Below, piece by piece: positions 2,756 through 14,364 of a stretch of DNA of 35,452 bases. How positions within the stretch are numbered: the stretch's first letter is position 1; each line of letters starts with the position of its first letter. The notes under the pieces were generated by a model. That model did not search any database, was not told the origin of the DNA, and was given only the letters and a program-made list of their open reading frames with translations. The position numbers and the translations under genes are program-made. This DNA comes from a virus (lineage: Duplodnaviria; Caudoviricetes): positions 1-35,452 of IMG/VR virus record IMGVR_UViG_3300016675_000057; one strand, 5' to 3'.

Positions 2756-2892
2756 AAAAAGGCTTGTACTACAACATCAACAAACGCAGGAAAGCTGGTT
2801 TGCCAGCGAAAAAGCCCGGACAGAAGGGTTACCCAACTGCCGAGGCTTTCCGTCGTTCTGCAAAGACAGCCAAACGCAAGAAGCGTCGTTAA
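2746..2892 (+). CDS. 48-aa highly basic protein (not in the ORF track)
   Basis: MSVKKGLYYNINKRRKAGLPAKKPGQKGYPTAEAFRRSAKTAKRKKRR*; AAGGAG upstream; overlaps the previous gene end. Confidence 0.65.
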   Translation: MSVKKGLYYNINKRRKAGLPAKKPGQKGYPTAEAFRRSAKTAKRKKRR

Positions 2893-3440
2893 TCCTTTTG
2901 GATGGCTAACTGATAGTTCATGCAAAGTAATTTGCACTTGTGTCTGTGAGTCACCAAGAATGCGTTGATAGCTGTCATCATATCTTCAGTCCCCTCGTAG
3001 TCATCAAATAGCATGACACCACCGGGCTTGAGAAGCTGGAAAGCCATACAAGCGTCTGTGATGACATCCTGTATTTCATGGCTACCATCCACATAAATGA
3101 AGTCAAACAGATACTCGGACGTTATAAGAGTAGCCAACATCTTGTAGCTGTAGCCTTCAGCAATCGTTACTGATTGAAAGTGCTTTTTGCTTGCTGCTAT
3201 GTTTTCTTCAAACACATCACGTAGCTTGCTCAAGTTCAAATCAGAATGCTCTTGACCGCCTTTGAACGTATCTATGCATACGATAGTTCCATCATTGGCA
3301 AGCATATTCTCAAGCATCCAACAAGTAGCCCTGCCCTCAAAGCATCCTATCTCTAGGAATAGCTTGTTGTCGGGCAAGACTAGCTTGGCTGCTTCAAAGT
3401 TTCCTATGTTGCTTGTGAACCAGTCTTGTGTAAACTTCAT
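2889..3440 (-). CDS. class I SAM-dependent methyltransferase (Methyltransf_24-like)
   Basis: Motifs FLEIGCFEG, FDFIYVDGSH, LKPGGVMLFDDY. Confidence 0.85.
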   Translation of the reverse strand: MKFTQDWFTSNIGNFEAAKLVLPDNKLFLEIGCFEGRATCWMLENMLANDGTIVCIDTFKGGQEHSDLNLSKLRDVFEENIAASKKHFQSVTIAEGYSYKMLATLITSEYLFDFIYVDGSHEIQDVITDACMAFQLLKPGGVMLFDDYEGTEDMMTAINAFLVTHRHKCKLLCMNYQLAIQKD

Positions 3441-4180
3441 TACGGTGCTGGCACTAAGCCGCCCTCAAAGAGATACGTTCCGAAGTGTCCAAGGGTTACC
3501 CAAGGTGCAGCATAAATCTTGTAGCCATTCAACCTAGCGACACGGCAGAAATGATAGTCCTCAGACAACAGACGTTCAGTACCCGGTTCTATGCTACAAG
3601 CAAAGTATTCAACGATTCGCTCGGTGATGTTACCGTTGATGATGGTCACATCGTTGTTATAGCTACCCACCTTGTCAGCCAAGCCCTCCAGTACTTCACG
3701 CTTTATAAGCATGAACCCTGTGCCACCTGCCCAAATCTCAACGGGTTTATCAACCGGGACTGTGACTGCGCCAGCATAATCAACCAGATTGACGACCAAT
3801 GAGCCTGTGCGCTTGGCTAAGTCTTTGGCCTCTACGCCCTCATCAGACGCTCTCTTGACGCTATTCCAATCAATTTCTTTCTTGGGATAGATACCGCAAA
3901 TGATGTCAACATCAGCCTCAACCATCGGAGGAATGTGGTTAGGGTCAAACTTGATGTCAGCGTCAATGAACATCAGGTGTGTGCATTTAGTCTTTAAGAA
4001 CTGATGCACAAGGGCGTTACGTCCACGCTGGATAAGGCTCTCATTGAACATAGAAGAGAAGCTCATATCCATGTTGTGATGCCGCATCACGTTAGTCATA
4101 GAGACTAGCGAGTTAGTGAAGTAACCCGTGCACATTCCACCATACATAGGTGTGCAGACAAAAATATGAGTTTTAGACAT
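3440..4180 (-). CDS. GT-A fold nucleotide-diphospho-sugar transferase-like protein
   Basis: TPMYGG, ESLIQRGRN, THLMFIDADI (DxD), GTGFMLIKR, LSEDYHFC, LGHFG. Confidence 0.75.
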   Translation of the reverse strand: MSKTHIFVCTPMYGGMCTGYFTNSLVSMTNVMRHHNMDMSFSSMFNESLIQRGRNALVHQFLKTKCTHLMFIDADIKFDPNHIPPMVEADVDIICGIYPKKEIDWNSVKRASDEGVEAKDLAKRTGSLVVNLVDYAGAVTVPVDKPVEIWAGGTGFMLIKREVLEGLADKVGSYNNDVTIINGNITERIVEYFACSIEPGTERLLSEDYHFCRVARLNGYKIYAAPWVTLGHFGTYLFEGGLVPAP

Positions 4181-5628: not shown

Positions 5629-5931
5629 CTAAAAGGGAATATCCCCTCCATCGTCAAAACGCTTGTGAGTCACTTTGTTGTAGGCAGGTTCCACTTCCTT
5701 GTGTTGCTCACGTTGTTTCTTGCTCCAGTTGTCTTCAGACAATGAAATCAAGTCGTATCCTCGGCTGGTTGGCTTTTTCCAAGCAGCCAGCTTTAGTTTC
5801 TCGCCAGCCTTGTAGTCCATCTCAAGGACTAGAAAGCCTTTGAAGTCTGGCGCTTTATCGTTCTTGCGTTGGGATTCTTCCTCCCAGTACATCACGCCTT
5901 TGCCGGGTCGTTCGTTGTGTAAGTTACTCAT
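5629..5931 (-). CDS. putative single-stranded DNA-binding protein
   Basis: KAPDFKG...LAAW core and acidic C-terminal DDGGDIPF tail typical of SSBs; lies in the recombination module. Confidence 0.65.
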   Translation of the reverse strand: MSNLHNERPGKGVMYWEEESQRKNDKAPDFKGFLVLEMDYKAGEKLKLAAWKKPTSRGYDLISLSEDNWSKKQREQHKEVEPAYNKVTHKRFDDGGDIPF

Positions 5932-6166
5932 GTTTTGCCTTTCTGTATGAATATTGGGCGAACTCTGTGTTGCCCTGCTTTACCATCGTTGTGTGAATCG
6001 GATGTCCCTGTCTTCTCAAGTATTCGATATGGGCTGCTAACCTAAAGCTACCAAACTTCTCTAGTGCTTCCTTGGGGGTTAGCGGCCCTATCTCTTGAAG
6101 GTGTCTCAGGATGTTTTCTCGTTGGGTTCCTGTTCTTGAGAGGATGGGGACTTTGACGCTTTTGGG
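5924..6166 (-). CDS. winged-helix HTH domain (HTH_39-like) with no canonical start; probable -1 frameshift extension of the RecT-like protein
   Basis: ...TQRENILRHLQEIGPLTPKEALEKFGSFRLAAHIEYLRRQGHPIHT...HE*; no ATG/GTG/TTG between the upstream in-frame TGA and the domain; C CCA AAA at 6166-6160. Confidence 0.75.
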   Translation of the reverse strand, partial: PKSVKVPILSRTGTQRENILRHLQEIGPLTPKEALEKFGSFRLAAHIEYLRRQGHPIHTTMVKQGNTEFAQYSYRKAKHE

Positions 6167-6978
6167 CCTTGTGGCACTCCCATAGCAACAAGCTCTGTGC
6201 GGAGTTTGAGTTTCTGGAATGAGTCCAACTTCTCACGCATCTCGATGTTGCAGTTATCCAACATGGCTAACTTCTCTTCTTTAGCTTCCTCGGTGAACTT
6301 TGGCGAGTTAAAGATTTTGAAGACCATCTGAGCGTAGCCTGTCACCCATTCTTCTTTGGTGTGATAGGCGGCATAAGGCTCTTCTGTGTTGGGTAGGTAT
6401 AGTTTGAAGGCTCCGTCTGCTTCCTGAATATCCTGTATCTCAGTCGTAGATACGTCCTCCACCCGCTCTGCCATGCCCATATCTTTGGCTGGTGCAGGAC
6501 TTGGGGGCGTAAAGTCTTGCACCTCTTCAGGTGTATAGACCCCGACAACACACCCGGGATATACGCTACGGATGCCTTCCGATACAACTCTAGCCCGTAG
6601 CATCGCTCTTGGGTAGTTCTTCCAATTATCCTTATTGGCAATGCCGATTGCTTTTGCTTGAGCGAGGCTCCATGACACCTCAAGACTACCCCCCTGCGGG
6701 TGGCTAAAAAGCCCCGTGACTTTTGCATCTGTGTATTCCTTCCATTCAACTTTACCGCCAGCCTGTTGGAAACGGGCAAGCATTGCATCTGCTTTAAGGG
6801 CAGGTCGTCCTTGGATTAGGTGGTAATCCCTAGCAGCAATCGCTGGATGTAAACCCTCTGCTTGACACAAAAGCATCAAAGCTACGGCTTGGTCTTTGTT
6901 GTTTATTCCAAACAACTTTGAAGCAGCAACAGATGTTGCCATTTGTTCAATTTCATGGAACGGTACGAGATTGCTCAT
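6106..6978 (-). CDS. recT: RecT/Red-beta-like single-strand annealing recombinase
   Basis: GLHP....DYHLIQGRPALKADAMLA, WKNYPRAMLRAR..SEGIR..YPG....YTPEE; paired with a YqaJ exonuclease. Confidence 0.75.
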   Translation of the reverse strand: MSNLVPFHEIEQMATSVAASKLFGINNKDQAVALMLLCQAEGLHPAIAARDYHLIQGRPALKADAMLARFQQAGGKVEWKEYTDAKVTGLFSHPQGGSLEVSWSLAQAKAIGIANKDNWKNYPRAMLRARVVSEGIRSVYPGCVVGVYTPEEVQDFTPPSPAPAKDMGMAERVEDVSTTEIQDIQEADGAFKLYLPNTEEPYAAYHTKEEWVTGYAQMVFKIFNSPKFTEEAKEEKLAMLDNCNIEMREKLDSFQKLKLRTELVAMGVPQGPKASKSPSSQEQEPNEKTS

Positions 6979-7535: not shown

Positions 7536-8432
7536 TCACTTGATTAAAAAACGGCGTGAGCCGGGAACTTCTCGCATAAACTGCTTGTAGATGTCTGGCA
7601 TAGCCTTCTCAAACAGTTTGGCATCGAACTTGATGGATGGTTTGGCTGATTTCCAAGTCGCTAGGACATTGCCCTCAATGGTGGCTAACGTATCTCTGTC
7701 ACCCATATAGCCTTCAATAAGGGTCTGTAGCTGGTCTTGGCGAGTCTCTAGAGCCTTTAATTCTTGCTTGATGAGGTATAGGGTGCGACAAGCCTCTTCA
7801 ACGCTCTGTGAGGCTGTTTTAACGCCTTCTGTGGATACTGGATATATGAGCTTGGCTTGCTCAACATCTTCCGGTGGAAACGGGTTTTTAGTCATAACCC
7901 GTGCCCAGACTTCAGCCATTTGCTTGATTAGCTCAAGTTTCTGTTCTTCGGAGATGTTGAAAGACGCAAGGAAAAACTCCTGACCACCGAATAGAACCGC
8001 CAGATAAACCTTGTCCACTCCGAATACTGTGGCTTCGTGTATGAGTTGAGCCATATCCGCAGCAGGGATGATTCCAGTTTCCGCATCAAACTTAGAACGC
8101 ACAGCAGCGTTGTAGTTCTTACATTCAACCAGAACAGTCTTACCATTTTCTTTTCCTGCAAAGTCAAAGTGTGAGCGTAGCCATGCTTCTTTGGGGTGGG
8201 TGAGGGCTTCTTCAATCTTGGTTAACTCAATGCCAAGTTTGGATTGAGCAAGTCTGCCGATGACGGGTTCCATAACGTGACCCATTTGGACAGCTTCAAC
8301 GTCTGACAGGTCGGGTATCTCCATCATGCCTAGCTTGGTCAAGATGACTTCATTAGCACGGCCTTGGGCTACCTTGCGGCTGTCGCCAGACCAGATAGCA
8401 GAGTTACGGGTTTCGGGTGAGAAGTCAGACAT
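7536..8432 (-). CDS. YqaJ-like (lambda-exo fold) recombination exonuclease
   Basis: Start reassigned to the ATG at 8432 (GGAGG SD); GHVMEPVI, HP...WLRSHFDF, LVECKN, AQLIH, C-terminal SRRFLIK. Confidence 0.85.
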   Translation of the reverse strand: MSDFSPETRNSAIWSGDSRKVAQGRANEVILTKLGMMEIPDLSDVEAVQMGHVMEPVIGRLAQSKLGIELTKIEEALTHPKEAWLRSHFDFAGKENGKTVLVECKNYNAAVRSKFDAETGIIPAADMAQLIHEATVFGVDKVYLAVLFGGQEFFLASFNISEEQKLELIKQMAEVWARVMTKNPFPPEDVEQAKLIYPVSTEGVKTASQSVEEACRTLYLIKQELKALETRQDQLQTLIEGYMGDRDTLATIEGNVLATWKSAKPSIKFDAKLFEKAMPDIYKQFMREVPGSRRFLIK

Positions 8433-8661
8433 TTGGAACCTCCGTTGTATAGGCTGACAGGGTTGGGTCGGTGTGGAGTTTGCCAGCAACCCCACAGGGG
8501 TTGTGGGGCAGACGTTCTACCGATGCGAAGTTGGATAGGGGTTTCTTGGGCTTGCCAGTTATGAGACTTAACTGGGGTGGTATGCGGTTGCATAGCCCGA
8601 ACTCTGGGTCGGGATGTTCAGAGTTCAGCTCAAAGTGTGAGCAGGTGATACACAGATTCAT
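8425..8661 (-). CDS. Cys-rich (Zn-binding) hypothetical protein
   Basis: CITCSHF...C...ER...CG..GK; AAGGA SD. Confidence 0.6.
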   Translation of the reverse strand: MNLCITCSHFELNSEHPDPEFGLCNRIPPQLSLITGKPKKPLSNFASVERLPHNPCGVAGKLHTDPTLSAYTTEVPNV

Positions 8662-8694
8662 AGGATACTTCCTTGTCTAGTTAGGGGAGATTGG

Positions 8695-8700
8695 ATTATA
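8695..8700 (-). promoter_or_regulatory. -10 box (TATAAT) for the recombination operon
   Basis: Perfect TATAAT in the intergenic gap ~35 nt upstream of 8661; no -35 consensus, so possibly activator-dependent. Confidence 0.45.
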
Positions 8701-8711
8701 CAGTTAGATGT

Positions 8712-8936
8712 TTAGTCTTCTTGTTGGTTAGTCTCCTTTTCTTTTAGGATTTGTCGGATTGTTACAACAGCCTCTAGGCGTTTGTGTTTGGCTATGTGTT
8801 CCTTGGGTTCTTCCAATGCGTCTAGGGCTAGTTTAAAGGCCTCTATTTGACGTTTTCTCCAGCCTTGTGAGGGTTGGGTTGTCTTAGCCTTTAAACGCCT
8901 TTCTAGGGCTTCAAACTCTTCATCTTCTGGTGTCAT
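8712..8936 (-). CDS. hypothetical protein
   Basis: MTPEDEEFEALERR...; GAGGA SD. Confidence 0.6.
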   Translation of the reverse strand: MTPEDEEFEALERRLKAKTTQPSQGWRKRQIEAFKLALDALEEPKEHIAKHKRLEAVVTIRQILKEKETNQQED

Positions 8937-8937
8937 G

Positions 8938-9051
8938 TTAGTCCTCTAGCAAGAATAGGTAAAAGCCTAAGACACCAAAGAAACCTAGAGCGCCTATGCC
9001 TAAGACCATACTGATTAGGACTATGTTTAACAGGTCATCAAAGATATCCAT
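8938..9051 (-). CDS. 37-aa single-TM peptide (not in the ORF track)
   Basis: MDIFDDLLNIVLISMVLGIGALGFFGVLGFYLFLLED*; fills the gap between flanking genes. Confidence 0.55.
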   Translation of the reverse strand: MDIFDDLLNIVLISMVLGIGALGFFGVLGFYLFLLED

Positions 9052-9366
9052 TTACTTTGCCCTTTCAATCTCTGCTACTGTTTCAACGATAGCCCGTCTT
9101 GTAGCTGCGTAAGGATTTTCTTTATGCTTAACTGGCCTTACATCTCTAAATGGAACTATTGTTTCGATTCCACGAATGTGAACATCTAGTCTTAACTTAA
9201 CAGCTAGGTTAAATGCTTGAGTGCTGTTATCAAGTGGGTTCCACCTAACAACGGAAAACCACCCATCCTCATCGTTTGGCATAACCCAACAATCTAAAGA
9301 TTCATCCCATTCAATTTCAATTCCAGCCGCTTTAGCAGCCAGTTCAAGTAGTTTTTTGTCTGTCAT
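9052..9366 (-). CDS. conserved hypothetical phage protein
   Basis: LLELAAKAAG...WNPLD....AFNLAVKL...YAATRRAIV. Confidence 0.7.
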   Translation of the reverse strand: MTDKKLLELAAKAAGIEIEWDESLDCWVMPNDEDGWFSVVRWNPLDNSTQAFNLAVKLRLDVHIRGIETIVPFRDVRPVKHKENPYAATRRAIVETVAEIERAK

Positions 9367-9596
9367 GCTACAAGTCTCCCGTTACTATCAAGGCGTGGGT
9401 TACGGCTATGGGGTTTTGTCTGACACCTTGCTTCTGTAGGTTGAGAATCTGGTGTGCAGCTTGTTTGGTCATAGATGCGTTTGAGTAGGTAGTCCAGTTC
9501 AGACTTCCTGATGTAGGTATGTATGGTTGGGGTTCTTTTGTATTGGGCATCTAGGTTCTTCTTTCGTTGTATGAGTAGGGCTAAGACTTCATTCAT
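9363..9596 (-). CDS. hypothetical protein
   Basis: ATG at 9596 with AAGGA SD (MNEVLALLIQRKK...). Confidence 0.5.
   Translation of the reverse strand: MNEVLALLIQRKKNLDAQYKRTPTIHTYIRKSELDYLLKRIYDQTSCTPDSQPTEARCQTKPHSRNPRLDSNGRLVA
9368..9472 (-). CDS. 34-aa peptide nested in an alternative frame of 9363..9596
   Basis: MTKQAAHQILNLQKQGVRQNPIAVTHALIVTGDL*; protein-like composition; stop abuts the next start. Confidence 0.4.
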   Translation of the reverse strand: MTKQAAHQILNLQKQGVRQNPIAVTHALIVTGDL

Positions 9597-9840
9597 GTTT
9601 TGTCCTTGCTCTGATATTGTGTGCAATGAGTGCAGAAAAGTTATGCTCTAAATCTTGGTCAGCAAGTCTGTCGGCAATCTGAGCACACGCCTCACGCTCG
9701 GCCTCTACTGCTTTGCGTATCTCGGCCTCTAAGCCACTTTTAGACCATAGGGACAATGGGCCTAGAACGTCAGAGACTTTACTGATGTAGTGTGGCTTTG
9801 CGGCTAACTCACGCAAGGCCATCTCTTCTTCTTTTGTCAT
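9589..9840 (-). CDS. conserved hypothetical phage protein
   Basis: AVEAEREACAQIAD...IRAR motif; GAAAGG SD. Confidence 0.7.
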   Translation of the reverse strand: MTKEEEMALRELAAKPHYISKVSDVLGPLSLWSKSGLEAEIRKAVEAEREACAQIADRLADQDLEHNFSALIAHNIRARTKHE

Positions 9841-9940
9841 GGGTAACTACCTTTCATCTGTAGGTTAGGAATGCTATCTCTGCATTCCCATTAACCTTTT
9901 TTTTAATTAAGACGTAGACGAAGCACCCACGTACAGGGAC

Positions 9941-9959
9941 TGTGGGTAACTTATCCACA
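9941..9959. promoter_or_regulatory. inverted pair of DnaA boxes
   Basis: TGTGGGTAA-C-TTATCCACA: one perfect TTATCCACA (9951-9959) and a 1-mismatch inverted box (9941-9949); AT-rich tract at 9891-9910. Confidence 0.6.
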
Positions 9960-10150
9960 AGGGATAACTGACTCTCGTTTATCTAGGCTAGGTTCATCGG
10001 GGTTTCAATCCCTTGTTGACCTCCCACTTGGTACTCACCCGAAAGATGCTCACTTAGGGATGACAAGGCAGGTTCGCCACGTTTATCTGTATTGGTCGTC
10101 AGAACCGTTACAAGGGGTGGGTGATGCCCCCGTGTATTGTGATGACCAAC

Positions 10151-10247
10151 AAAAAAAGCCACTTACTACTGCCCCGTAGTGGTTCCCCTAAAACGGGGCG
10201 AGGCATGAGTAAATGGCTTTCACTTGTTGACCACTACGACAACGGTG
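10151..10247 (-). ncRNA. c4/CI-like structured antisense RNA with terminator-like U tail
   Basis: 5' hairpin with loop GTAGTGGT, then a 13-bp stem AAAGCCATTTACT/AGTAAGTGGCTTT, a 7-bp stem TGCCTCG/CGGGGCA, an inner CCCC/GGGG hairpin and a bulge ACCACTA complementary to the 5' loop; ends in T7; G-U pairs work only on the minus strand. Confidence 0.65.
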
Positions 10248-10250
10248 CGA

Positions 10251-10281
10251 ATGATAACCTAAGTCATTGGGGCTTTGTCAA
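10251..10281 (-). promoter_or_regulatory. sigma70-like promoter for the ncRNA locus
   Basis: TTGACA (10281-10276), 19-nt spacer, TATCAT (10256-10251); spacer is longer than optimal. Confidence 0.45.
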
Positions 10282-10414
10282 CTGGTTTCTTCATTGTCTT
10301 AACCTTTCGGGGTTTATTGGGGCATTTGGGGCATTGTCTAGACTGACAGACCCCCAACGCATCACAGGTGCGTGTGGGGGCGTGTAGGGGTTGCCAATGG
10401 GTTTTTACAGCCAT
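10259..10414 (-). CDS. 51-aa Cys-containing peptide
   Basis: Start reassigned to MAVKTHW...RTCDALGVCQSRQCPKC; overlaps the upstream stop. Confidence 0.5.
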   Translation of the reverse strand: MAVKTHWQPLHAPTRTCDALGVCQSRQCPKCPNKPRKVKTMKKPVDKAPMT

Positions 10415-10545
10415 AGCAGGGCTATCACTAGACCCCAACCCACGCCTGAGAGCCACAAAACCACTAGGTCGGGGGTTGTCCATTCTGTAACCTCTTGGGG
10501 TTCAGCAGGGGCGGGGTTGTAGTTTTCTCTGAACTGGTGGTTCAT
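10405..10545 (-). CDS. 46-aa C-terminal-TM peptide (not in the ORF track)
   Basis: MNHQFRENYNPAPAEPQEVTEWTTPDLVVLWLSGVGWGLVIALLWL*; ATGA-coupled; GGAG SD. Confidence 0.55.
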   Translation of the reverse strand: MNHQFRENYNPAPAEPQEVTEWTTPDLVVLWLSGVGWGLVIALLWL

Positions 10546-10862
10546 TTGTAATCTTCTCCGGTGATGGTTTTGTATACGTCCATAGCCCTTTGGATTTCTG
10601 GGGGTTGGTTGTCATAGGGGCTTATGTTGTGCCCGTCAAGCCGATTTGAGTACCATTTCAACATGGACAACAGACACCCGAAAAGCTCCGGGGATGCGGC
10701 TATCAATCTGGCATTGGATTCTTTCTGGTCATCGGGTATCGAGCGCCTATTTGGGATGTTGGCTATTGTGGATTTGTTGCTTGTAACGCTCAAGGGATTG
10801 GTTTTCCAATTAAAGGCTCGATTGTCTCGAAACCTCCAAGGGGCAGGGGTAGGGTTAAACAT
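10542..10862 (-). CDS. conserved hypothetical early phage protein
   Basis: TPAPW...NARLIAASPEL motif. Confidence 0.75.
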   Translation of the reverse strand: MFNPTPAPWRFRDNRAFNWKTNPLSVTSNKSTIANIPNRRSIPDDQKESNARLIAASPELFGCLLSMLKWYSNRLDGHNISPYDNQPPEIQRAMDVYKTITGEDYK

Positions 10863-10900
10863 GGTTAGCCTTTCATGCCCCCGTGGGGGCGTATGGGGGT

Positions 10901-11077
10901 TTACAAGGTCATAAGGTCAACGGGTGAACCGTCAACATGGTGCGTATGGTGAACCTTGCAAAAATACTCATTGTCGAACTGGTCAACGAAATAGGCATTT
11001 TCTGAACCTCGCTCGGTTTCGGTAATAGCCCCAGTTCTGAGCCATGTTTGCATTGTCTTGACTTCGATTTCTCTCAT
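10901..11077 (-). CDS. hypothetical protein
   Basis: ATG at 11077 with TAAGGG SD (MREIEVK...). Confidence 0.5.
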   Translation of the reverse strand: MREIEVKTMQTWLRTGAITETERGSENAYFVDQFDNEYFCKVHHTHHVDGSPVDLMTL

Positions 11078-11087
11078 GTCTAACCCC

Positions 11088-11273
11088 TTATGCGTGGGCG
11101 AAAAGAGAACGGTAAACGTCACAGCCCGTATTGTTGCCATATACGTGGTTATTTGCGTTGAAATAGGCCTCGATGTACTCTCTCACGCTCATATTGTCAT
11201 TCCACTTGGGAAAGTTACGTTTCCCGCTGGTCAAGCGTGGTTTTGCTGGTTTGCGTGGTTTCGTGGTTTTCAT
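11088..11273 (-). CDS. hypothetical protein with basic N-terminus
   Basis: ATG at 11273 with GGAG SD (MKTTKPRKPAKPR...). Confidence 0.55.
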   Translation of the reverse strand: MKTTKPRKPAKPRLTSGKRNFPKWNDNMSVREYIEAYFNANNHVYGNNTGCDVYRSLFAHA

Positions 11274-11349
11274 GGTCACAGACTCCAATGGTTAACAGTA
11301 GCAAGGCGCTACCGCAAAAGGCTAGCCCGTAGCCTTTCACGTTATGCCC

Positions 11350-12204
11350 TTATGCGGCGAGCGGGAGGGCTGTAGCGTCAAGCCCGTTGATGTAATCGGC
11401 GGCCTTTTGAGCCAATGCTGATGCCTTAAAGATAGCCTTTGAATCGTCTTTAAGGGCTTTAAGCCACGATTGGATATATCCAGCGTGTCTTAGTTCGCCT
11501 TGAATGCCATAGTCTTGACAGAGGAATGCCGCTCCCATTTCAGCCACTAATTCCTCAAAAGCATAGGCGGGATTCCCGTATTTGCCTTTTAAGTCACGTT
11601 TACAGCGTGTTTCATGCCCTGTCCAATGCACTAATTCATGGAATGCTGTCGCATAGTAATGACATTCAGCATCAAAGGCGGTCTTATGCGGTAATTGGAT
11701 GCGGTCTTGAGAGGGCATATAAAAGGCGGCATCACTACCATGCGAGATTAAAGCCCCAGTTTTAACGATTCTTTCCTCTGCTAACTGGTTAGCTGTGAAT
11801 GGCTTTTCTTCTGGTTCAACTGTCGTTATTGTTAAGCCCTCTACTTGGCTAGCGTTGAACACTACATAAGACTTTAATACGCTGTAGCTTTCGGTTTCGC
11901 CCGTTTGTTTGTTTTCTTTGCTGACAGGGCTGTAAAACACGATTCGAGTGCCCTTTTCGCCTTTTTTGACGTAAGCCCCCAAGGACTCCCATTGTTTGAA
12001 GCTAGCCCATGCGGGAACCGTGTAGCCCTTGACCATGGCTGTCATGCCTAAGATAAGGCGGTTTATCCCTTGATAGGGCTTTTGAGAGATGACGTTTTTG
12101 TCAGCGCTACTGTCAGCTTTCCAAGGCTTAACCCATGGAATTGCACCCTTTTCGAGTTGCTCGATGATGCTGTTTGTCACTTCTTCATAGATTGATTGAG
12201 ACAT
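11350..12204 (-). CDS. ardC: ArdC-family antirestriction ssDNA-binding protein (DUF1738 + zincin-like MPTase)
   Basis: IYEEVT..II..LE.G..PW.KPW, YQGIN, W.SFKQW, VKKGEKG, VFNASQ, HELVHWTGH, YAFEELVAE.GAAFL, HAGYIQSWL. Confidence 0.92.
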   Translation of the reverse strand: MSQSIYEEVTNSIIEQLEKGAIPWVKPWKADSSADKNVISQKPYQGINRLILGMTAMVKGYTVPAWASFKQWESLGAYVKKGEKGTRIVFYSPVSKENKQTGETESYSVLKSYVVFNASQVEGLTITTVEPEEKPFTANQLAEERIVKTGALISHGSDAAFYMPSQDRIQLPHKTAFDAECHYYATAFHELVHWTGHETRCKRDLKGKYGNPAYAFEELVAEMGAAFLCQDYGIQGELRHAGYIQSWLKALKDDSKAIFKASALAQKAADYINGLDATALPLAA

Positions 12205-12238
12205 AGTGGAACTTCCTTTTGATTAGTTGACGATTAGA

Positions 12239-12436
12239 TTATAGCAAATCAATGACTAGCCCATAATCATTGCTAGACACTTCTATTTCACCAAGGGTTA
12301 CCAAGGCATCAATGACGCTTAGAAAACCTACTGTAGAGAGTTCTAGCTGGTCTTGAACCCATAAGGCAACGCTGAACATAGAGCAAGGCGCTGACGCTTC
12401 TATGTGTGTTCTGATGTCGTGAATGTATGTTTGCAT
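12239..12436 (-). CDS. hypothetical protein, first gene of the leftward arm
   Basis: 65 aa; AAAGGAAG SD. Confidence 0.55.
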   Translation of the reverse strand: MQTYIHDIRTHIEASAPCSMFSVALWVQDQLELSTVGFLSVIDALVTLGEIEVSSNDYGLVIDLL

Positions 12437-12489
12437 GGAAACTTCCTTTCAAAGTAGAGGGCTAAAAATCTAGCCCTTTCATATATATA

Positions 12490-12541
12490 GCATAATAGAA
12501 TCGTGCCAGCTTTTGAAATAGTCTTATAAATCAACAACTTA
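12490..12541 (-). promoter_or_regulatory. sigma54-like -24 element with upstream IHF site
   Basis: Minus strand reads TGGCACGATTCTATTATGC (12508-12490); AATCAACAACTTA at 12529-12541 matches the IHF consensus WATCAANNNNTTR; GC lies 14 rather than 10 nt from GG. Confidence 0.45.
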
Positions 12542-12589
12542 AATGTTGTAAGCAAAACCCTAATGTCTTTTTATCCAGTAGTTTATATT

Positions 12590-12670
12590 CCTAGACTGTT
12601 AAGTTTATAGATGTTAGATATACTATGTATCTATATAGACTTAAACCTATACAGTAATACATAGTCTAGG
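12590..12670. repeat. nested AT-rich imperfect inverted repeats
   Basis: CCTAGACT/AGTCTAGG enclosing TTAAGTTTATA/TATAGACTTAA and TAGATATA/TGTATCTA. Confidence 0.6.
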
Positions 12671-12911
12671 TGTGTGTATCTATCTAAGTCTATGCCTGTC
12701 TGTCAGACAACGGGAAACGAATGGGGGTTCTCACGCTTTTCTCACTACAGAAAAACGTAAGACGCTACCCGCTACCCGCCTAGTCTTGGGGCATGGGAAT
12801 TCCCTTGCATAGTCATTACACGCAACGACATCACGCCCACTCGATTTGGGTTTGGGATTAGAAAAGGGTGTGCCCCCAACCTATCCCCCCCCAAAAAAAA
12901 TTTATGTTTTC

Positions 12912-12920
12912 TGATACAGT
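12912..12920 (+). promoter_or_regulatory. extended -10 promoter for the tRNA
   Basis: TG-A-TACAGT 5 nt upstream of the tRNA 5' end, preceded by an A/T tract. Confidence 0.5.
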
Positions 12921-12925
12921 CTAAG

Positions 12926-13000
12926 TGCGGTGTGGAGAAGAAGTATCTCGTCAGCCTCATAAGCTGAAGAACGCTAGTGCGAGTCTAGCCACCGCAACCA
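12926..13000 (+). tRNA. tRNA-Met (CAT), initiator-like but atypical
   Basis: Acceptor TGCGGTG/CACCGCA + A + CCA; D stem GAGA/TCTC; anticodon arm TCAGC-CTCATAA-GCTGA; T arm GCTAG-TGCGAGT-CTAGC. Confidence 0.85.
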
Positions 13001-13023
13001 ATGCAGTTGACCTAAGAGAGTTA

Positions 13024-13059
13024 GGCTACGTGAGTACCCACTTGCGTAGCCCTTTTTTT
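13024..13059 (+). terminator. intrinsic terminator after the tRNA
   Basis: GGCTACGTGAGT-ACCC-ACTTGCGTAGCC followed by C and T7. Confidence 0.8.
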
Positions 13060-13099
13060 GCCTGTAATATATGGTTATAGATAGAGGGGTAGAGATGCT

Positions 13100-13318
13100 A
13101 TGCAAGTTATTGAAGTAGAACGTGGAGTAGTAGTTCCGATGCCGAGGGTGGTTTATTCGTACCCGTATCAGGAGATGGATGTGGGTGACAGTTTTACTGT
13201 GCCTGTGGCTGCTCGTCAGAAGGTTTTGAATGCCAATTACCGGGCTTCTAAGAGGCTTGGATTGAAGTTTATGGCTAAGACTGAGGGTGATGTAGTCCGG
13301 GTGTGGAGGGTGGCTTAA
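13100..13318 (+). CDS. small putative DNA-binding protein
   Basis: YPYQEMDVGDSF...VRVWRV motif seen in small phage proteins; GAGG upstream. Confidence 0.65.
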   Translation: MQVIEVERGVVVPMPRVVYSYPYQEMDVGDSFTVPVAARQKVLNANYRASKRLGLKFMAKTEGDVVRVWRVA

Positions 13319-13320
13319 AG

Positions 13321-13533
13321 ATGGCTCAAGTGGACTGGTTATGGATGGAGGAGGATGAGCTAAGAGCGGTGTGCTGTCTCTTGGCTGACCTTTTGCGCCA
13401 GTCTGAGATAAGAAGGGTGGTTTGCATAAATGAAGCACTACAACACGGATACAGAGAAGGATATGCAGATGGAGCTTTACAACTCCCGTCTGCGCTTGAA
13501 GAGAGAGATGCAAAGAGCCTTGTCCTGCATTAG
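13321..13533 (+). CDS. hypothetical protein
   Basis: ATG at 13321 just after the previous stop; EALQHGYREGYADG motif; overlaps the next ORF. Confidence 0.5.
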   Translation: MAQVDWLWMEEDELRAVCCLLADLLRQSEIRRVVCINEALQHGYREGYADGALQLPSALEERDAKSLVLH

Positions 13534-13672
13534 CCCTGCGGCTAAGAGGAAGCTGGCACGGGAGTGGGAGGAAACCTACTCAGCCTTGTTTTACAAAGAA
13601 CTGCTCTCATGTGCAAAGAACAAGTTGGTGGCTATGGAGATAGCTGACTGGACAGATGAAAGAATGAAATGA
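13430..13672 (+). CDS. hypothetical protein (start uncertain)
   Basis: Helical ORF ATGA-coupled to the glycosyltransferase. Confidence 0.55.
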   Translation: MKHYNTDTEKDMQMELYNSRLRLKREMQRALSCISPAAKRKLAREWEETYSALFYKELLSCAKNKLVAMEIADWTDERMK

Positions 13673-14364
13673 AGGTTGCTGTTATCACGCCCTACTACAA
13701 GGAAGACCTCAACACCCTAGCTCGGTGTCACAAGTCCGTTGTGAGCCAGACCTACAAGGATGTCAAACACTTTATGGTGGCTGACGGACATGAGAGAGAC
13801 TTCATTGATACGTGGGAGTGCGAACACATCAAACTGCCAAACTGCGGGGATACTGGCGACACGCCGAGGGTTGTAGGTTACGCCGTTGCCGCTGCCAGAG
13901 GCTACGATGCTATTTGCTTTCTGGATGCTGACTGCTGGCTAGAGCCTGAACACATAGCCAACATGGTTGACATCATGCAGCATTCAGACAAAGCCTTGGT
14001 GACCTGCCCCCGCAACCTCTACACCCTTGATGGCGCATTCATGGCTGTGGATACCGAGTCAGATGGTGTGAACTTCAACGACACCAACTGCTACCTGATT
14101 CACCGCAACGCCTACCTGCTCATCCATTCTTGGATATGCAAACCCAACGGACAGGGCTTGATTGGTGACAGATACTTCTGGTTTGAGGTGTGCAAGTCAG
14201 GCATCCCTATGGCTCGTTCTGTCAAGCCTACTGTCAACTACACAACCACCTACGCCTTTCACTACGAACTCAACGGATTGCCCGTTCCCGACCACGCCAA
14301 AGTCATTGCTGACCTTGGTGACGGATACAAGACTTACAACCACAAAGAGGTCATCAGAGTATGA
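13669..14364 (+). CDS. family 2 glycosyltransferase
   Basis: VAVITPYY, SVVSQTY, MVADG, ICFLDADCW (DxD), GDRYFW. Confidence 0.85.
   Translation: MKVAVITPYYKEDLNTLARCHKSVVSQTYKDVKHFMVADGHERDFIDTWECEHIKLPNCGDTGDTPRVVGYAVAAARGYDAICFLDADCWLEPEHIANMVDIMQHSDKALVTCPRNLYTLDGAFMAVDTESDGVNFNDTNCYLIHRNAYLLIHSWICKPNGQGLIGDRYFWFEVCKSGIPMARSVKPTVNYTTTYAFHYELNGLPVPDHAKVIADLGDGYKTYNHKEVIRV

Follow-up and report, generated by a model that had tools for sequence, protein, structure and literature searches.

A probable programmed −1 frameshift linking a RecT-like phage annealase to a startless HTH_39 winged helix

The 35,452-nucleotide (nt) virus record IMGVR_UViG_3300016675_000057 (Caudoviricetes; CheckV completeness 100%), analysed over its full length and called the window below, encodes on its minus strand a RecT-like single-strand annealing protein whose gene (recT) is overlapped at its 3′ end, in the −1 frame, by a winged helix-turn-helix (HTH) domain of the HTH_39 family. 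Comparison of related junctions indicates that this 3′ end very probably contains a programmed −1 frameshift. The favoured reading, to which a probability of roughly 0.8 is assigned, is that frameshifting yields a 351-residue RecT bearing the winged helix, and that this long form co-assembles with the short one, likely tethering or nucleating the annealase on double-stranded DNA (dsDNA). The junction is built from the following elements, among them a Shine–Dalgarno (SD)-like motif.

6106..6978, minus strand: gene for the 290-residue RecT-like annealing protein (Pfam RecT, 26.5 bits, cut-off 24; PHROG 561, E 6e-21); in an AlphaFold model, annealing domain at about residues 1–155, flexible linker, helical C-terminal domain at about 190–265 and short tail
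6177..6181, minus strand: internal SD-like GGGAG, exactly 10 nt upstream of the heptamer
6160..6166, minus strand: slippery heptamer C CCA AAA, comprising the last base of codon 271 and codons 272–273
5924..6160, minus strand: −1 frame extension of 78 residues, with a linker of about 11 residues and then a basic HTH_39 winged helix, and no start codon of its own
6106..6159, minus strand: 0-frame tail of the unshifted product, 17 codons, dual-coded with the linker and the first HTH helix

The SD-like motif, the 10-nt spacer, the heptamer, the 273 + 78 codons and the 17-codon tail given in the original prediction are all present base for base. The −1 frame stays open between 6232 and 5924, recT contributes 273 codons up to the shift, and the predicted long product (273 + 78 residues) compares with a short product of 290. 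Residues 12–70 of the 6160–5924 frame (6127–5951) match HTH_39/PF14090 at 34.8 bits (cut-off 21.3; E 1.5e-8), the atlas score for HTH_39 is 0.95 with 90–96% PF14090 in the matched clusters, and this frame is the sole HTH_39 match in the window genome. It holds no ATG, GTG or TTG from its upstream stop through the Leu20 codon, so the claim that the domain lacks a start is borne out, and no ordinary ATG precedes the Thr-Gln-Arg (TQR) motif in homologs. The 29 long open reading frames of the window (8238 codon positions) contain five in-phase X XXA AAR heptamers, and only that at the recT junction has an SD upstream or a −1 frame of more than 38 codons. An assembly indel, against which the original prediction had cautioned, was not seen: contigs from 4 of 4 other runs carry substitutions and no inserted or missing bases at 5800–6500, and L187, L188 and L189 align without gaps over 400 nt.

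The same arrangement recurs in related phages. A search with RecT alone as query gave 80 loci; later searches, some with the HTH as query, make the pooled set of 264 distinct complete recT genes HTH-enriched (9 others, too near a contig end, were left out). In the RecT-query set the HTH is present in 53 of 80 loci, in all 53 in the −1 phase overlapping the recT end and in all 53 with C CCA AAR, while in the remaining 27 recT stops at about the heptamer position and the next gene follows directly. In the pooled set an HTH adjoins 156 of the 264 recT genes. In 155 of these 156 it is in the −1 phase and follows an in-phase X XXA AAR; only L262, which carries an indel further upstream, departs from this, and its junction is identical. 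These 155 genes form 66 clusters at 90% RecT identity. Conversely, X XXA AAR occurs in the last 45 codons of only 4 of 108 HTH-less recT genes, three of them with dead-end frames of 4–5 codons and the fourth, L267, with other cargo. With heptamer and phase conserved in this way, an SD at most junctions, no ordinary ATG and no indel, the proposed frameshift withstood the comparison with relatives.

The heptamer is C CCA AAG in 55 clusters, C CCA AAA in 9 and A AAA AAG, encoding Lys-Lys, in 2; the last form, found in 6 genes, stands at the same place with GGGG or GGAG 10 nt upstream. An SD-like GG[AG]G is located 9–13 nt upstream in 142 of 155 junctions (10 nt in 113 genes, 9 nt in 20, 11 nt in 4, 13 nt in 5) against an in-phase background of 4.5%, and the anti-SD pairing energy peaks for 7-nt windows ending 8–9 nt upstream. 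Across 58 distinct junctions CCCAAA is invariant and the flanks are variable: the first C belongs to a codon that occurs in 11 forms for 9 amino acids, with C as its third base in every one, and the junction Pro is always CCA, compared with the use of all four Pro codons in recT bodies. C CCA AAR occupies 0 of 14633 codon positions in the bodies of the 58 distinct recT genes, which contain 39 Pro-Lys pairs, versus 58 of 58 junctions. Because CCCAAA is invariant, the preceding codons end in C, the motif is absent from the bodies and A AAA AAG can replace it, the conserved signal is nucleotide-level rather than a conserved Pro-Lys pair. In L001–L005 (e.g., L001:2295-2310) two in-phase heptamers stand in tandem, C CCA AAA and then C CCA AAG three codons on, and either would reach the HTH.

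Initiation within the −1 frame was also considered. No ATG, GTG or TTG is found between the upstream −1 stop and the Gln-Arg (QR) motif in 148 of 155 genes. The original prediction had allowed that a non-canonical upstream start might account for the HTH; such a start is ruled out in 17 of 155 genes, because there a −1 stop lies within two codons upstream of the heptamer, and the scan for non-canonical starts from the heptamer to helix 1 revealed no position before the QR motif that is common to more than 6 of 66 clusters.

Both endings bear marks of selection. The HTH core, measured beyond the overlap, has a ratio of nonsynonymous to synonymous substitution rates (dN/dS) of about 0.19 (934 non-independent pairs chosen by RecT identity), and on these substitution patterns the HTH is under purifying selection. 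Within the overlap, residues G, T, Q, R and I have an amino-acid entropy of 0.2–0.8 bits in the −1 frame versus 1.0–2.2 in frame 0, and variation at G-T-Q-R and at Ile falls at third positions of the −1 frame, which argues that this frame is selected before the recT stop; the overlap's ratio of nonsynonymous to synonymous polymorphism (pN/pS) did not discriminate between the frames. The 0-frame tail is acidic in 64 of 66 clusters, with a mean net charge of −2.5 versus +0.35 when the −1 codons are resampled synonymously, and ends in Phe in 38 of 66 clusters versus 15.6 under synonymous resampling (the significance of both being inflated by relatedness), the window's own tail ending in Ser. The tail has the 17 codons originally given, but it is not the mere low-complexity filler it had been taken for, and appears to be under selection to be acidic. 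Such an acidic, often Phe-ending tail presumably resembles the tails of SSB, the protein that binds single-stranded DNA. By that analogy the short form might use its tail to recruit partners, as SSB does, a role put forward tentatively.

In E. coli, two of the three heptamers with the highest efficiency are C CCA AAG and A AAA AAG, and C CCA AAA belongs to the motifs that give more than 0.10% shifting without a stimulator (PMC4066793); the SD spacing for −1 shifts is 9–14 nt (PMC5009743). By analogy with these sites, SD-assisted tandem slippage of tRNA-Pro and tRNA-Lys is highly likely to generate the 351-residue protein as a minor product. The 3′ end of 16S rRNA would pair with GGGAG and stall or strain the ribosome, as at known bacterial −1 sites, tRNA-Pro and tRNA-Lys would slip from CCA-AAA to CCC-AAA, and a minority of ribosomes would shift by −1. 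Since the short tail is acidic and the extension basic, the shift would exchange an acidic end for the basic HTH_39 domain. In the window the rate is probably low, a few per cent, because its heptamer ends in AAA, the weaker variant, and is not followed by a stable 3′ hairpin.

The extension is predicted to adopt a winged-helix fold (AlphaFold, mean predicted local distance difference test score of 82), with helices at residues 15–25, 31–38 and 43–52 and strands at 57–64 and 67–74, and the model superposes on that of a stand-alone phage HTH with a root-mean-square deviation (rmsd) of 0.9 Å. Among known structures it matches 2cwe (Z 8.7, rmsd 4.4, 67 residues aligned) and Stf76 (Z 8.2, rmsd 3.0, 69 aligned), and the nearest folds are mostly DNA-binding regulators with Z of 7–9. 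All 66 clusters have a basic extension (with a net charge of +4 to +8 for 65 of them), the RLAAHIE recognition helix and the wing are invariant, and the net charge of +7 in the window suggests DNA binding. The RecT model has a predicted template modelling score of 0.36, and its top PDB match, the N-terminal domain of lambda Red-beta (7ujl), is weak (probability 1.00, E 0.055, 78 columns). The original prediction spoke of annealase rings; an assembly of subunits is retained here, but it may be a filament, the closest solved structure being the helical Red-beta assembly. There is perhaps an even chance that the winged helix binds dsDNA and that sub-stoichiometric long subunits join the RecT oligomer and tether, nucleate or position it on duplex DNA.

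Elsewhere HTH_39 is a separate protein: a profile of the stand-alone family gave 65 distinct matches, 62 of which have a start within 20 codons, and the 3 without a start all lie on recT with C CCA AAG and GGAG(G) upstream. The setting of these genes favours the main reading: in 10 of 15 loci sampled from the 65, the stand-alone HTH_39 gene has a gene for replication or recombination no more than 1.5 kb away, and in Bcep22-like phages HTH_39 genes head an initiator cluster (PMC9144972). The family's existence as a separate protein lends weight to an alternative that accepts the frameshift but regards the winged helix as a protein-binding adaptor, or as a means of dosing an HTH_39 regulator at a low, constant ratio to RecT, rather than as a device for aiming at DNA. 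Relatives hold HTH_39 in the same operon upstream of the exonuclease gene (MW202722.1; L434), nine others substitute a V[SG]G[FW]xxIGxI peptide resembling a linear binding motif, and the C-terminal domain of lambda Red-beta binds the proteins Exo and SSB (PMC6393309). However, the uniformly basic extension, its invariant recognition helix and wing, and the predominance of DNA-binding regulators among the closest folds fit this alternative poorly, and a weak ordinary start would be a simpler way to dose a free HTH, so that it is judged the less probable account of the domain, though a serious one.

Reinitiation could use a TTG or CTG that overlaps the stop of recT, or else an ATG or GTG slightly before it, and release a free, N-terminally shortened HTH. 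Of the 66 clusters, 33 have TTG as the Leu20 codon and 28 have CTG, the 0-frame stop lies inside that codon in 62 of 66, an ATGA overlap at the recT stop, three codons earlier than the Leu20 site, is found in 7 of 66, and a GTG just before TQR is present in L294 and L295. Reinitiation is not the sole route, because it would lose conserved residues of helix 1, because 5 clusters lack the codon and because an SD precedes it in 13 only: the residues before Leu20, which make up the first half of helix 1 in the model, show conservation in the −1 frame, and the Leu20 codon is CTA, TTA or CTT in 5 of 66 clusters. Moreover, the 7 ATGA clusters retain heptamer and SD, and reinitiation leaves the heptamer swap and the SD 10 nt upstream unexplained. 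As an additional route to the HTH beside the frameshift it is somewhat unlikely; as the only one, with an incidental heptamer, it is very improbable. An extra base introduced by RNA polymerase slippage at the A run would produce the same fusion, and the A AAA AAG lineage does have a run of six A, but most members have only three or four, and tRNA re-pairing is consistent with the invariant CCC and with an SD spaced as for ribosomes, which leaves this explanation with hardly any probability. An assembly error, or decay of an in-frame fusion or stand-alone HTH, to which the missing start codon (typical of pseudogenes) and the 37-residue HTH stump annotated here in MW202825.1 might point, is refuted by the identical phase in 155 distinct genes, the lack of indels in the 4 other runs and the low dN/dS, and its probability is negligible.

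Besides the potential reinitiation signals, several observations weigh against a frameshifted, DNA-aimed annealase. The lineages are related, so the counts overstate the independent evidence, and the SD motif is missing in 13 of 155 junctions. The HTH is absent from 108 of 264 recT genes and dispensable, 3–8 gains or losses being needed on a C-terminal-domain tree, and HTH_39 was found nowhere in 5 of 5 HTH-less relatives (92–100% complete) and in 1 of 5 further genomes. Natural in-frame RecT–HTH fusions, which the original prediction had thought might exist in relatives, were found in no locus or protein examined: the best 120 of 7338 RecT relatives are 225–294 residues long and without HTH_39 annotation, the best 150 of 8579 HTH relatives hold no RecT-sized protein but a 377-residue triple-HTH protein, and a search for longer HTH-containing proteins scored 0 of 59 candidates, which is weak evidence. 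The winged-helix matches of the model (best Z 8.7) show a common fold, not DNA binding. A search of 8600–13700 for target repeats gave nothing iteron-like, only two-copy families at chance level. Site-specific initiation by the HTH is possible but unsupported, because no target repeats stand out in this stretch and six near-complete or complete relatives are without HTH_39.

Nor was a conserved 3′ stimulator found: RNAalifold placed 0 pairs on the 66 junctions, and the 65 nt downstream in the window fold no better than shuffles (z +0.99). A candidate GTCCC/GGRAC helix (6151–6147 with 6130–6126, about 16 nt apart) has a double change in 1 of 5 pairs and no covariation support, and a family-level conserved 3′ RNA structure is rejected on these three grounds. 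The GTCCC itself (6151–6147, minus strand), 8 nt past the heptamer, has conserved nucleotides, with an entropy of 0.39 at its third-position C; this conservation may stem from a conserved frame-0 Ser instead. A stable 3′ hairpin (z below −2) is present in 11 of 66 clusters versus 2 of 66 control windows, L293 being among the 11. In L293–L296, a lineage without the SD, a hairpin (L293:2176-2247, z −3.1) starts 6 nt past the heptamer and is possibly a replacement stimulator. Many HTH-less recT genes in L059–L080 have, a few nt ahead of an ATGA overlap with the next gene, a GGAG(G) situated roughly where the internal SD lies, and the frameshift stimulator may be derived from a next-gene ribosome-binding site of this kind.

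The junction is found on RecT annealing domains that are 25–27% identical to each other, and annealing-domain types are intermixed on the tree of C-terminal domains, a quick tree of 112 of 130 clusters and 86 columns in which many forks are open. Among the 44 distinct complete recT genes from the last search, heptamer and HTH occur together in 2, a separate HTH stands upstream of the exonuclease gene in 1, 32 have neither, and in 9 a heptamer is followed by other cargo in the −1 frame. In these nine, C CCA AAG or C CCA AAC leads into a −1 frame of 59–60 residues with the core V[SG]G[FW]xxIGxI. The loci with this cargo, mostly with an SD, are L417, L419–L422, L426–L431 and L468 (e.g., L430:2301-2477); a related peptide stands behind the recT heptamer of L267 (L267:2949-3101), which extends the size range to 51–60 residues. 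The core of this second cargo is encoded in the interval separating recT from the next gene and has synonymous changes, its frame end overlaps the start of the next gene except in L267, and L426 has GTA where other relatives have a possible GTG start. That the second cargo is a remnant of the HTH is unsupported (hhalign probability 1%).

A sister clade without the fused HTH (L408:1465-1671 and L059–L080) has a distant stand-alone HTH-like gene between the RusA/HNH genes and the glycosyltransferase gene. Such a gene was seen roughly 1.7 kb downstream in 12 of 37 loci that lack the HTH versus 0 of 101 fused loci with enough flank; as a complement to the fusion it carries little weight, since it is confined to one clade and its similarity is weak (hhalign 54%).

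Further features of the window are listed here.

7536..8495, minus strand: YqaJ/RecE-like exonuclease gene (Pfam YqaJ; PHROG 434, E 1.5e-43, scanned from 8432)
5629..5931, minus strand: gene for a 100-residue protein with an acidic tail ending in DIPF, overlapping the final 8 nt of the HTH frame
11350–12204, minus strand: gene for an ArdC-like anti-restriction protein (ArdcN and zincin-like metallopeptidase), close to where the early region begins
2889–4180, minus strand: glycosyltransferase-like gene, also found behind the recombination module in L293, L297 and L408
13669–14364, plus strand: methyltransferase gene

The stretch is contained in aquatic metagenome runs (freshwater, estuary and other). 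Pfam and PHROG scans place the terminase, portal and major head genes on the plus strand, and the leftward early module runs from the ArdC-like protein through small genes, the YqaJ/RecE exonuclease, recT and the HTH frame to the 100-residue protein, with endonuclease, RusA, HNH, glycosyltransferase and methyltransferase genes further downstream. The exonuclease is presumed to be the annealase partner, being encoded in the same operon. The 100-residue DIPF protein, whose gene sits directly after recT in HTH-less relatives, is probably SSB-like; it matched no Pfam or PHROG family, and its one atlas cluster, with DUF736 on 10% of members, is a lead only. The glycosyltransferase-like and methyltransferase proteins possibly modify DNA or the virion. 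A 19-nt imperfect inverted repeat at 12635–12693, in the interval from which the early and late regions diverge, is a candidate probe for HTH binding. Of the 62 window reading frames scanned against Pfam or PHROGs, none was recognised as a replication initiator, helicase, primase or polymerase.

A bolder proposal is that the recT 3′ end is a mobile, cargo-swappable cassette, through which a few long subunits would nucleate the annealase at a defined phage site for recombination-dependent replication; this is regarded as doubtful. If true, it would describe a natural site-directed annealase in small phages without a recognisable initiator, helicase or primase, in which frameshifting trades an acidic SSB-like tail for a targeting module, mostly a winged helix and in others a short peptide.

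The proposed site resembles those of E. coli dnaX and of IS3/IS911, which likewise combine an in-phase X XXA AAR with an SD-like stimulator 9–14 nt upstream (PMC5009743, PMC6771820), and the dnaX heptamer A AAA AAG is itself present in one recT lineage. However, dnaX has a 3′ stem-loop, an element that is not universal in prokaryotes, and the recT junctions, being without a conserved one, are not a full dnaX-type cassette; furthermore, the dnaX shift shortens its product (PMC4066793), whereas that in recT would lengthen it and the gene encodes a phage annealase. In the C-terminal extension of a protein by a minority of ribosomes, the closest parallels are lambda gpG/gpGT and the Ig-like capsid extensions of Lactobacillus phage A2 and of T3 (PMC5009743, PMC6771820); there the short and long forms occur at a fixed ratio, 30:1 in lambda, and a partner is recruited by the appended domain (PMC5009743). 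Whereas those proteins belong to the virion or to tail assembly, here an early recombination protein would receive a winged-helix cargo. A2 reportedly uses C CCA AAA.

The protein shares with RecT and Red-beta annealases its Pfam and PHROG membership, an adjacent YqaJ/RecE exonuclease, and predicted annealing and helical C-terminal domains. In-frame shuffling of C-terminal domains between annealase families has been described (PMC8093625); a frameshift-dependent second C-terminus would set this protein apart, and the main text of PMC8093625 contains 0 occurrences of "frameshift". Similarly, HTH_39 proteins such as gp18 of Burkholderia phage JC1 have a near-identical predicted fold and occur in replication and recombination modules (PMC9144972), but HTH_39 is normally a separate protein of 70–100 residues with its own start, whereas the domain here is startless and could be reached by a −1 shift from recT. 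The open-licence literature searched showed no frameshifted annealase, although a related case may stand in the supplementary cluster tables of PMC4066793 and PMC3711429; "RecT" appears 0 times in the main texts of PMC3711429 and of 10.1101/2025.10.02.679949.

Phage frameshifts described so far lie almost all in tail-chaperone or virion genes; in the SEA-PHAGES set of PRFect, 2397 of 2476 joined genes encode tail assembly chaperones and 79 hypothetical proteins (PMC10885494). The recT junction would add a recombination protein made in two forms, with selection on both endings and a cargo that differs between lineages. Gene callers miss or truncate the HTH domain; the best of 1.8 billion representative proteins matches the clade profile at only E 1e-25 and a GenBank record reduces the domain to a stump: the annotation of L299 (MW202825.1, 3442–3555) covers the 37-residue stump only, and in L302 (MW202753.1) no GenBank gene is annotated over recT. 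HTH_39, an uncharacterised family, would gain a physical link to DNA annealing, and the recT junctions provide a natural series of heptamer and SD variants for the rules of bacterial frameshifting. The positioning of an annealase by a minority DNA-binding subunit is a testable idea that bears on recombineering.

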